Of a stretch of DNA of 64,000 nucleotides, positions 24,001 through 27,000 are shown one piece after another. Within the stretch, counting starts at the first letter, position 1; the number at the start of each line of letters is the position of its first letter. The stretch comes from a bacterium. Lineage in GTDB: Bacteria; Zixibacteria; MSB-5A5; GN15; FEB-12. The DNA is taken from the NCBI GenBank assembly GCA_043811375.1, contig JBDRNJ010000024.1, forward strand, positions 1 to 64,000. The letters run 5' to 3'. A program made the position numbers.

Positions 24001-27000
24001 GTTGTTCTCATTCTGACCTCAGTCACACCCGCCCTCTTCGGGACCTGCACTGCCTGATCAGATTCAATCCCGTGCTCCTTTGGCATCAATTGTGTCCTCA
24101 CACGGTACTGCAATAGAGCCCCAGAGAGGCTCAGGCAGTTCCAGGCACAGGCCGCTGGTAGTCTTACCACCCTGCCAGTGTATGTCAAGTAAGAGACTAG
24201 TGGAACCCGAAAAACTCAAGCTTAGCGAATCAACACCAAGCACAAAGATCCGCTCTGAAGCAGATTTCCCTGTTAAAGAGGACGTTCTTATCAACGTCAA
24301 TCCCGAGAAATCCTCAATTTCATATGCCGCTGCAACAAACTGATCGCTGGAGTCAATGGCAGATTGCCGGACCTCAGCGAGTGTGTCGGTACCCCACAGT
24401 TTTAGCTTGCCAGGGGGTTTATCGAGATTCAGTAGGAAGTACCACTCGAAATTACCTGGGCTCACGTCATAGGTAGCTGCGAACAATACGTTATTGTCGA
24501 CTATGTACATCTGAGCCTTTGAGGCCCGTTTGATCAAGCGAACCAACTCTCGCTCTCCGTCTGCCTCGTGACCTGATTTCAGTAAGAAGATCCCAAGCAC
24601 GTATGGTGTCATAGCGAAAGATGCCTGCAGCCTGGCCACTACGTGGTGTTCACTGTTGAATACAGAGGCAACTGTGCGCCATCTCAACGAACAGGATAGG
24701 AACATAACGCAAATCAGCAGCAGTATCGGGGTAACAGTATGGACCAGGACCCGAAGCACGATGTACAGGATAAACTTAAGTCTACTCATCTCTCAATTCA
24801 CCTCCCGCGATATAAGCCTTACCACCTTCCCCTATTCTACAAAAATGCAAACAGCGCCGACTGCGAAATTTCCAGCAGTCGTTGCGGGAAGAAGCCCAGG
24901 CCGAGTGTGCCGACAGCTGTTATCAGCAGCGCCAGTAAAATCGCCGGTGAGTATCTGACCGATATGAATGCCCCCTCCGGCTGGTCGAGGTAGCTCGCCT
25001 TAATCACGCGCAGGTAGTAGTAGACGGACAAGAACGAGTTCATGACACCGATCACTGTCAACCAGATATAACCGGCCTTAACAGCCGCCGAGAAGATATA
25101 GAACTTGCCGACAAAACCGACCGTGGGCGGGAACCCGGCCAGCGAAAACATGAACAGCGCCAGCACCGCCGCCAGGTAGGGGTTAGCCCGTGAGAGGCCG
25201 TTGAGTTCGGTAAAATCAGACTTGCAGCCGGAGCGCGTCTCCAGTAGAGTGACTACCGCAAAAGCGCCCAGGTTGAACATGGCGTAGGCCACCAGGTAAA
25301 AGACCGCCGCCGAGATAGCATCCTCTCCCCCAACCGCCAACGCCACCAGCAGGTAACCGGAGTGAGCAATCGATGAATAGGCCAGCATCCGTTTGACGTT
25401 TTCCTGCCTTAGCGCCATAATGTTACCGACAGTCATGGTCAGCACCGCCAGCACCCAGAAGACAGTCCCCAGCGCTTCGATTTCTGTAAACCCGATGGCG
25501 AATATCCGCAACAGCACCGCAAACCCAGCTGCTTTGGGTCCCACCGAGAAGAAGGTCGTCATCGGTGTCGGCGCGCCCTGGTAGACATCGGGCACCCAGG
25601 TATGGAATGGCACGGCGGCCACTTTGAACCCGAAACCAACCAGAATCAGCGACACCCCCAGGTAGAGGTAGAGTTGATAATTGGAGACGATGAAGTGACA
25701 GTCGGCGATCAATCGGCGCAGGTCGGTAGTTCCGGAGGCTCCGAAAACAAAAGCGATACCCATCAGCAGGAAGGCGCTGGCGAAAGCACCCATGATGAAA
25801 TACTTGATACCGGCCTCGTTGGACTCCAGTGAGCGCCGCGCGAATCCGGCCATCACATACAACGGCACCGACATGATCTCCAGGCCGAGGAACATGACTA
25901 TCAGGTCGGTGGTGTTGGCCATGATCATCATGCCCGCCGTTGAGATCATCAGCAGTGGGTAAAACTCCGGCCGGGCGATACCCTTGGCGTGAAGGAAGCG
26001 GTGAGCGATCAGCAGCGCCAGCACCGAAGTGCCTGCAAAGATTACTTTGAGGGCCACCCCGAAGCTGTCGCAGGTAACCATGCCGGAGAACCCGGATTGC
26101 TGATGTCCCCACTGGGCAACGGCCAGCGCCATAGACACAAGCAATCCCAACAACGACAGGCCGAAACACAACGGTTGCAACCGACGCACACAGCCGATTA
26201 GAAGTACCAGTGCGGCTGTTGCCAGGAGGGCTATCTCCGGGTAAATCAGGTCAAAACTTATCGCTGCTGAAGTCCAGTCAATCATATAACCTACTCAGGC
26301 GGCGACCGCCGCCACAATTTCAAAATCCTCAGCCACCACCGAATCCGAGTTTTACTTCATCCTGGTCCACGATGACCGGGACAATCCTCTCTCCTTTGGT
26401 CAACTCAAGAATCATGTCTTTGGCATCGGGCGTCCGGCTGATGTTGACTTCCGTGAAGGCGATGCCTTCATCGGTATAGTGCTTTTTGGCCGCCTCGCAA
26501 TAGGGGCAGCCATCCTTGGTGTAGATGGTAACGTTACTCATCGGATATTTCCTCCGCATGATCCGTTATTTCAATCACTGGTGCATCCCCAACCGTCAGG
26601 GATTCGGATAATTGGAAACCGTCGTCGCTCTGGACGGTACTGGCCCGGCTGACCTGTTGGAGCACCTGTCGGGCAGCCGGCTCAATCCGCTCAAACAGGG
26701 GACGCGGGTAGATGCCTATGAAGAATATCAACAGGACCAGCGGAATGAGGATTATCTTCTCGCGCCAGTCCAGGTCTTTCAGGTGCCGGTTTTCCTCCCG
26801 GGTAACCTTCCCGAAAAACACCCGCTGGTACATCCACAACATATAACAGGCGGCAAAAACCACGCCGCTGGCGGCAATGATACCGTACACAGCGTTGGCT
26901 TTGAAAACTCCCAGCAGGATCAGAAACTCACCGACAAAACCGTTGGTGAACGGCAACCCTATAGACGACAGGGTGACAATCATAAAGAACGTCGCATAGG

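Follow-up and report, generated by a model that had tools for sequence, protein, structure and literature searches.

A predicted Uxx-star selenoprotein between nuoM and nuoN in Zixibacteria, a candidate redox helper made alongside complex I

Uxx-star proteins (NF041212, with the sub-models NF041114, NF041211 and NF047338 and the fusion model NF045501) form a widespread family without a tested function. They are about 70 aa long and combine a CxxC glutaredoxin fold with a glycine-rich tail in which selenocysteine (Sec) stands three residues from the end. The source paper for the family is reportedly Haft and Tolstoy 2025. The protein described here has the same length, fold, tail and Sec position, and it differs from the family at large in its fixed site inside the nuo operon for respiratory complex I. 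In the portions available of PMC13188914, UXX-star proteins appear with a possible metal-ligand role or with substrates not known, and the Sec-glutaredoxins listed in its table carry Sec in a UxxC motif rather than in a tail.

Other described proteins resemble this redoxin in fold, in chemistry or in context. NrdH-redoxins, mycoredoxin-1 and the clostridial cGrx1 have the same fold (Z 10.3-10.8, rmsd 1.7-2.0 over 66-68 residues, TM about 0.8) and share its cis-Pro motif, V54-P55, but the redoxin has its Sec tail where they have a C-terminal helix. Mammalian thioredoxin reductase carries a flexible C-terminal Gly-Cys-Sec-Gly arm that is recharged from an N-terminal dithiol; its scaffold is unrelated and the redoxin has a single Sec without an adjacent Cys, so that the likeness is one of mechanism only. 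Mitochondrial Grx2, according to the accessible part of PMC4233936, reversibly modifies NDUFS1, the homologue of NuoG, at Cys531 and Cys704. Grx2 is thus a glutaredoxin-fold protein tied to redox maintenance of the NADH-oxidising module, as the redoxin may be; Grx2 is glutathione-dependent and not operon-linked, whereas gshB was not detected in the redoxin's host.

Literature searches returned nothing that joins the Uxx-star family to complex I or to Zixibacteria; the family source paper and its supplements lay outside these searches and may mention the neighbourhood. The terms "complex I", "nuo" and "Zixibacteria" do not occur in the available text of PMC13188914, nor do "UXX", "Zixi" or "NADH" in the main text of the BSepDB paper (PMC13326102). 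The redoxin belongs to a catalogued family and occurs here in a setting that is apparently undescribed, and a long-held site in a respiratory operon gives this family a first testable client.

The window, i.e., the whole stretch of 64,000 nt analysed here, carries the complete nuoA-N set around the redoxin gene, with 14 of 14 genes identified by profile search (Table 1). Sequence and profile identities thereby bear out the position reported in the initial annotation, between nuoM and nuoN of a 14-subunit operon. The redoxin is the sole Uxx-star family member found by a search of the host genome. Translation is assigned to the ATG at 26541, with GGAGG 9 nt upstream, rather than to an alternative ATG further upstream at 26559, a choice supported by the position of the ribosome-binding site and by the homologues. 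The gene consists of 70 codons followed by TGA, GGA, TTT and TGA, giving a protein tail of GGG-U-G-F-stop. The hairpin GGCGGC-GGUC-GCCGCC follows; its loop begins 21 nt past the UGA and its 3' end lies 12 nt from the nuoN ATG.

Table 1. Coordinates of the redoxin gene, its signals and the surrounding nuo genes in the window.
Feature	Position	Strand	Remarks
Uxx-star glutaredoxin-fold selenoprotein gene	26320..26541	-	73 aa plus stop; NF041212, 112.4 bits (cut-off 66)
CPYC motif, residues 12-15	26497..26508	-	Cys12 invariant; Cys15 replaced by Ser in 3/98
UGA read as selenocysteine, U71	26329..26331	-	From sequence and orthologous loci
True stop codon TGA	26320..26322	-	In 98 orthologues: TAA 64, TGA 20, TAG 14
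Bacterial SECIS hairpin, 6 bp, GGUC loop	26298..26313	-	Within the 34-nt gap ahead of nuoN
GGAGG ribosome-binding site of redoxin gene	26551..26555	-	Within the end of nuoM; sequence reading
Purine-rich probable ribosome-binding site of nuoN	26290..26296	-	1 nt past the SECIS stem; putative function
nuoM	26534..28123	-	TIGR01972, 653.7 bits; stop overlaps redoxin start by 8 nt
nuoN	24837..26285	-	TIGR01770, 448.1 bits; ATG at 26285
nuoA-L of the 14-subunit operon, including nuoE, F and G	28127..39525	-	Profile matches

Membership of NF041212, as first reported, is upheld: with the tail included, the match spans profile positions 1-70 of 70 at the score in Table 1 (105 bits in the genome search). 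The match to NF041114 (UXX-star family 1) is marginal (75.4 bits, cut-off 72), while UXX-star families 2 and 3 and the HUGP fusion fall below their cut-offs (80.7 vs 100, 74.8 vs 97 and 78.9 vs 325, respectively), as do all glutaredoxin and NrdH models in the profile search (GRX_bact, 51.1 vs 90). An apparent NuoM-redoxin fusion (P0002/L318) was set aside as a probable indel error, since a frameshift near residue 202 affects that nuoM as well. Other longer matches, from a weak search of 77 candidates, are Chloroflexota C_GCAxxG_C_C fusions, and the one scanned is the known NF045501.

The predicted structure (pLDDT 88.7, modelled with Cys in place of Sec) aligns with mycoredoxin 2lqq (Z 10.8, rmsd 1.8, 68 aligned residues), cGrx1 7c10 (Z 10.6) and NrdH 4hs1 (TM 0.81). 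The model ends past the fourth strand, with the Gly-rich Sec tail where the last helix would be. C12, P13, V54, P55, G69 and U71 are invariant in 61 aligned rows. The residue preceding the cis-Pro is no more than about 4 A from the nucleophilic Cys, and it is there that partners attach through a transient antiparallel beta-strand, as described in the part of PMC2665069 available. The full model of the redoxin has two-residue strands at 53-54 and 71-72, and the strand at 53-54 disappears when the same 61 rows are refolded minus the last three residues. This loss suggests that the tail pairs with the cis-Pro loop; as read from the secondary-structure letters of the predicted models, the Sec tail most likely pairs with the residues preceding cis-Pro55, beside Cys12. 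A tail in the substrate groove would make Cys12 and Sec71 the working pair, again by models with Cys for Sec, and offers the whole family a testable chemistry.

Decoding of the UGA was assessed in 98 orthologous loci from 98 genomes, after removal of L031, L076 and L081 (one locus duplicating that of the window and two weak glutaredoxins that are not orthologous), and in 20 further loci from 19 genomes. In all 118 (98/98 and 20/20), the UGA is followed by exactly two codons and a stop. Among the 98, all four Gly codons are used directly past the UGA, the codon after the true stop is unconstrained, and the two residues after Sec are GF in 71, GY in 10, GI in 9 and DF in 8; SF, HI, RI, GV and GW also occur in the 20 further loci. 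The tail had been described as always G-G-G-U-G-[FIV], which is too narrow, and three relatives were said to lack the TGA. None of the orthologues examined here lacks it: the "no stop" rows are alignments that end before the UGA, and every one fetched has TGA.

The bacterial SECIS model, in the available text of PMC13188914, comprises a loop of 3-9 nt, a stem of 4-16 bp, a G in the first two loop positions and a loop located 16-37 nt past the UGA. Counts with its stem, loop and spacing terms, minus its energy limit, cover the 96 loci with usable downstream sequence. The model is satisfied by 90/96 loci under loose and 87/96 under strict settings, relative to 686/1920 (35.7%) and 214/1920 (11.1%) of shuffles and 231/1031 (22.4%) and 68/1031 (6.6%) of real TGA stops in the host genome. 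The host's own hairpin passes (6 bp, GGUC, 21 nt). Alone, it has modest stability (z -2.0; 10/200 shuffles equally stable), and an alternative fold is preferred in its 106-nt context; a single hairpin is thus modestly above chance, whereas the comparison across 96 loci places the SECIS far above it. The stem arms come in 43 distinct forms with all six pair types, a covariation that is circular because the stems had been selected for pairing, so that support rests on the shuffle and TGA-stop controls. A GGUC loop had been reported for 20 of 29 loci; here it occurs in only 21/90 SECIS-positive loci, and the common feature is G-[G/U]. No U-run follows the hairpin on its 3' side and it is missing from the terminator scan listing; the promoter and terminator scans of the locus were uninformative.

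The host genome encodes selA, selB, a UGA-containing selD and tRNA-Sec (selC), and selA is present in 264/285 genomes of the phylum. Among 150 distant representatives, a pattern flagged 10 with Cys near the end, of which 8 are true Cys-tailed homologues, most with CxxS-type motifs; 57/150 end at a Gly-rich stretch, as expected for gene calls cut at the UGA. In a few family-like representatives the residue near the Sec position is Ser, Thr, Arg or Ala, indicating that the tail residue is not universal among family-like proteins. From the invariant UGA, the varied second stop and Gly codons, the SECIS enrichment, the Cys homologues and the complete Sec system, we consider it near certain that the UGA is decoded as Sec. 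Two parts of the initial annotation therefore stand: a 73-aa CPYC selenoprotein ending GGG-U-G-F, and a SECIS-like GGUC hairpin just past the true stop in the nuoN leader. Gene callers lose the catalytic residue of the redoxin in these genomes.

The place of the gene is constant. Both neighbours, nuoM upstream and nuoN downstream, were scored in 92 of the first 98 loci; five end at a contig edge on one side and have the expected neighbour on the other, and in one (L046) the script misbinned nuoM and left nuoN unscored. The 20 further loci have nuoN downstream in every case and nuoM upstream in 19, the last running into Ns. No orthologue lies outside the nuoM-nuoN slot among the 118 loci, across lineages with the redoxin in this slot whose NuoN proteins are as little as 39% identical. 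The redoxin shares its operon with nuoEFG in 25/27 long loci, and the host's second nuo operon (contig C40; 11 subunits, without nuoEFG) does not have it. The nuoM stop overlaps the redoxin start in 49/94 loci and the two lie within 13 nt in 86/94. On the other side, the SECIS is at most 20 nt from the nuoN start in 49/94 loci, at most 30 nt in 72/94 and 53-369 nt in 15/94. Coupling to nuoM and a SECIS near the nuoN start imply co-translation and would have helped to keep the gene in place.

Presence of the gene is less uniform than its position. A match at E <= 0.001 was obtained in 207/285 genomes of the uncultured phylum Zixibacteria, and removal by hand of 16 weak matches (E above 1e-8) left 191/285, about two thirds, in 11/20 families; the other nine families (71 genomes) gave no strong match. 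The claim that the nuoM-redoxin-nuoN arrangement is kept across Zixibacteria consequently holds for position but not for phylum-wide reach. Genomes in which the gene is absent mostly retain complex I: nuoN was detected in 78 of 80 tested genomes, chosen from the 94 without a strong redoxin match, and among 33 long loci from gene-less genomes at least 22 have an intact 14-gene operon with nuoM directly before nuoN. Within the host's own order, four genomes (G046, G047, G141 and G185) are clean losses that all retain selA. Two genomes (G178 and G033) hold broken copies, and the copy in G001 is cut by the contig end.

A tree built from the concatenated Nuo proteins of 58 operons (FastTree, midpoint-rooted, with one paralogue-type row included) places presence in three deep clades with 8 changes, most of them losses from operons that are otherwise intact. 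Redoxin identity follows NuoN identity (Spearman 0.68, 90 loci), and the nearest redoxin neighbour belongs to the same family in 88/90 loci, although both values are overstated since kin are not independent. A single origin relative to outside relatives is not rejected (p-AU 0.645, 73 columns). The simplest history would be one early insertion followed by several losses. Because many relatives hold an intact complex I operon without it, the redoxin seems to be an optional helper, co-expressed with the operon, and not a proven subunit.

Outside the phylum, the family keeps different company. The best 80 loci of a genome-collection scan include 42 with nuo genes, 24 titled Zixibacteria and 18 with looser or other labels; the latter are taken, from their range of nuo-protein identity, as probably the Zixibacteria lineage. 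The remaining 38 come from Chloroflexota, Thermoleophilia and other Actinomycetota, Acidobacteriota, Bacillota and others, with TGA in all, and none of these 38 has nuo genes within the up to 4 kb fetched. In a scan of 91 of their 139 extracted neighbouring ORFs, they sit behind selB (2 loci), a heavy-metal P-type ATPase (4, with rhodanese) or citrate synthase (2), or before a Ser/Thr kinase (3), and triosephosphate isomerase is also among the neighbours. Given these varied neighbours, which include no nuo gene and give no hint of a respiratory role, the Uxx-star family is free-standing, and in this sample the nuo link is particular to the Zixibacteria lineage.

Thiol genes of the host bear on how such a redoxin might work. 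Matches to bshA, bshC and TrxR exceed their cut-offs; YpdA and BrxA/B were not found in the host genome, nor was gshB in this 95%-complete assembly (the search covered gshB, not gshA or gshF). With no glutathione synthetase found, "glutaredoxin" is the name of a fold only. A strict link with bacillithiol was considered and rejected, as redoxin presence does not track bshC: six genomes with the redoxin lack a bshC match (G234, G235, G040, G125, G018 and G201), and families f7, f8, f16, f17, f19 and f20 have bshC without the redoxin. Genes beside one relative (L193) score below the BshA and BshB cut-offs.

Overall, we hold it narrowly probable that the redoxin is an ancient and optional redox helper, co-translated with complex I after one early entry into the 14-subunit operon and acting through its Sec tail. 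The Uxx-star gene would have entered the NADH-oxidising nuo operon once, early in the phylum, and been inherited since. Overlapping stop and start codons would have it translated in step with nuoM, and conservation suggests that the hairpin in the nuoN leader is the signal by which SelB inserts Sec three residues from the end. The product would be a soluble redoxin of the NrdH/Grx fold whose Gly-rich Sec tail replaces the last helix and probably occupies the substrate groove, resting against the cis-Pro loop. The Gly-Sec-Gly tail may then play the part of a tethered glutathione: it would swing outward to reduce peroxides, disulfides or mixed disulfides, and thioredoxin reductase or bacillithiol would recharge it by way of CPYC; the presence of bshA, bshC and TrxR without detected gshB fits this idea. 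Its likely role is that of a redox-maintenance helper made in proportion to respiration, not a required subunit, and its retention would reflect both that benefit and its tight placement between the nuoM stop and the nuoN leader.

Two other explanations appear unlikely. The first treats the redoxin as a dedicated partner of complex I, a lineage-specific accessory subunit or assembly factor that binds NuoE/F/G or an assembly intermediate and repairs thiols or Fe-S ligands. The absence of relocation in 118 loci while NuoN falls to 39% identity speaks for it, as does a setting that is always a NuoEFG-type operon where seen, and the Grx2 precedent on NDUFS1 (PMC4233936, in its accessible part) makes complex I a plausible target. 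Against it, presence changes 8 times on the Nuo tree, in most cases by loss from an intact operon, and 0/38 outside relatives lie near nuo among the best 80 loci. Complex I has a thioredoxin-fold subunit of its own, NDUFA2, which as an analogy favours such a partner. A subunit or assembly factor should be present wherever the lineage's complex I is, and the redoxin is missing from many intact operons. Moreover, no Cys column in any of the 14 Nuo subunits follows redoxin presence. Two NuoF cysteines seem enriched with the redoxin (C110, 23/26 vs 11/25; C120, 20/26 vs 4/25) and were discarded as co-varying positions, since four close losers keep both and phylogeny explains the pattern instead. 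A complex prediction of NuoG with the redoxin cut at the UGA scored 0.00; the Sec tail was missing and controls were not folded, so it is evidence neither way.

The proposal that the gene encodes an accessory or redox-repair factor of complex I accordingly stays a candidate, strengthened by the unmoved position, co-inheritance with nuoN and the NuoEFG-type operon; the clean losses, the lack of co-varying Nuo cysteines and the unrelated neighbourhoods outside speak against a required role. Direct action on the NADH-oxidising arm, in which the tail would act as a glutathione built into the protein of a host with no glutathione synthetase detected, is a doubtful extension; if true, it would give complex I a selenoprotein partner and the Uxx-star family its first concrete client.

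The second explanation, which we judge about as improbable as the first, makes the redoxin a trapped passenger. It would be a selenoprotein with a general redox or metal-binding function and no connection to respiration, exploiting the strong constitutive expression of the operon and staying because few deletions would spare both the nuoM end and the nuoN leader. Outside relatives do ride behind varied genes, and Sec in UXX-star proteins is possibly a metal ligand in the portions of PMC13188914 available. The nuo operon of this lineage also admits inserts, judging from the methyltransferase between nuoL and nuoM in the sister families f16 and f17. Clean deletions have nonetheless happened several times, so that trapping is not absolute, and occasional relocation would be expected of a pure passenger, with none seen in 118 loci. 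Were the redoxin only a passenger, the result would reduce to a tidy annotation fix.

Alternatively, the SECIS may tie NuoN synthesis to selenium. SelB bound beside the nuoN ribosome-binding site would tune NuoN translation and so couple complex I assembly to selenium supply, much as E. coli SelB represses selAB through a SECIS-like leader. The short distance to the nuoN start in the host and in most loci suits this control, but the 15 loci with 53-369 nt do not; the closeness also follows from a compact operon with Sec three codons from the end, and the protein itself is kept as a redoxin. We regard such control as very unlikely. Least credible is a UGA that acts as a real stop, with a 70-aa redoxin as product and the hairpin as a leader or processing structure: database entries do end at this UGA and 20/98 true stops are likewise TGA, but the UGA is invariant, the second stop varies and synonymous codon changes occur between the two, while the enriched SECIS, the Cys-tailed homologues and the full Sec machinery all point the other way.

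Hairpins also follow the UGA of two other genes in the host genome. A thioredoxin-type gene on contig C57 has a 7-bp stem with a GGUC loop, and selD has an AGUUU-looped hairpin.

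In families f16 and f17, nuoL and nuoM of the 14-subunit nuo operon are separated by a gene for a class I SAM-methyltransferase, in which a C-I-H-C motif is conserved. The gene was recovered in loci L143 and L141 and in 10 more genomes of these families, both of which are without the selenoprotein gene, and is absent from G248 and G250 of f17; a search of the host genome for this methyltransferase returned no match. The mitochondrial complex I assembly methyltransferases NDUFAF5/7 offer an analogy for the f16 and f17 insert.

The nuo operon itself is not uniformly contiguous. 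In f19 and f20 (L146, L147, L309-L311) it is split and only nuoJ-N lie together; further split loci (L285, L305) represent G176, where only nuoM, the redoxin gene and nuoN are together, and G221, where nuoN stands alone. In L318 (G038:C4) and the longer redoxin match P0002, the redoxin is in frame with the C-terminal part of NuoM, but this fusion is probably an assembly error because nuoM is also frameshifted. Host NuoG is missing three of the four cysteines of one Fe-S motif, presumably N7; these residues are kept in about half of the operons bearing the redoxin gene and in most other operons. The host also encodes a second, complex I-like operon, and most genomes tested carry two nuoN copies. 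For the two ORFs that follow nuoN in the host, Pfam and NCBIfam gave no match, and no homologue was found among the fetched loci.

Coordinates of nuo-associated and other features (G000, host genome; L143 and L141, relatives' loci)
Feature	Location	Remark
Class I SAM-methyltransferase gene	L143:14421-15059	nuoL/nuoM gap
Class I SAM-methyltransferase gene	L141:13991-14611	nuoL/nuoM gap
NuoG	window 32484-35051	
Two ORFs	window 23103-24789	3' of nuoN; 241 aa and at most 361 aa
Complex I-like operon	G000:C40:15294-25364	11 subunits, without nuoEFG
bshC-bshA	G000:C21:28985-31683	bacillithiol genes
In-frame TGA	G000:C64, + 90124	

Across the phylum, bshC is present in 239 of 285 genomes, and in several selA lies within a few kb of it (bacillithiol-gene examples: G212:C80, G190:C1, G029:C1, G267:C2). 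Beyond the phylum, in Thermoleophilia and related Actinomycetota (L198, L204, L226, L231), the Uxx-star gene sits directly 3' of a heavy-metal P-type ATPase, and in two of these loci is itself followed by a rhodanese gene. This gene order provides a lead toward a metal-handling role. Finally, the TGA on host contig C64, accompanied by a 7-bp hairpin, joins open frames of 134 and 157 codons that may encode another selenoprotein.
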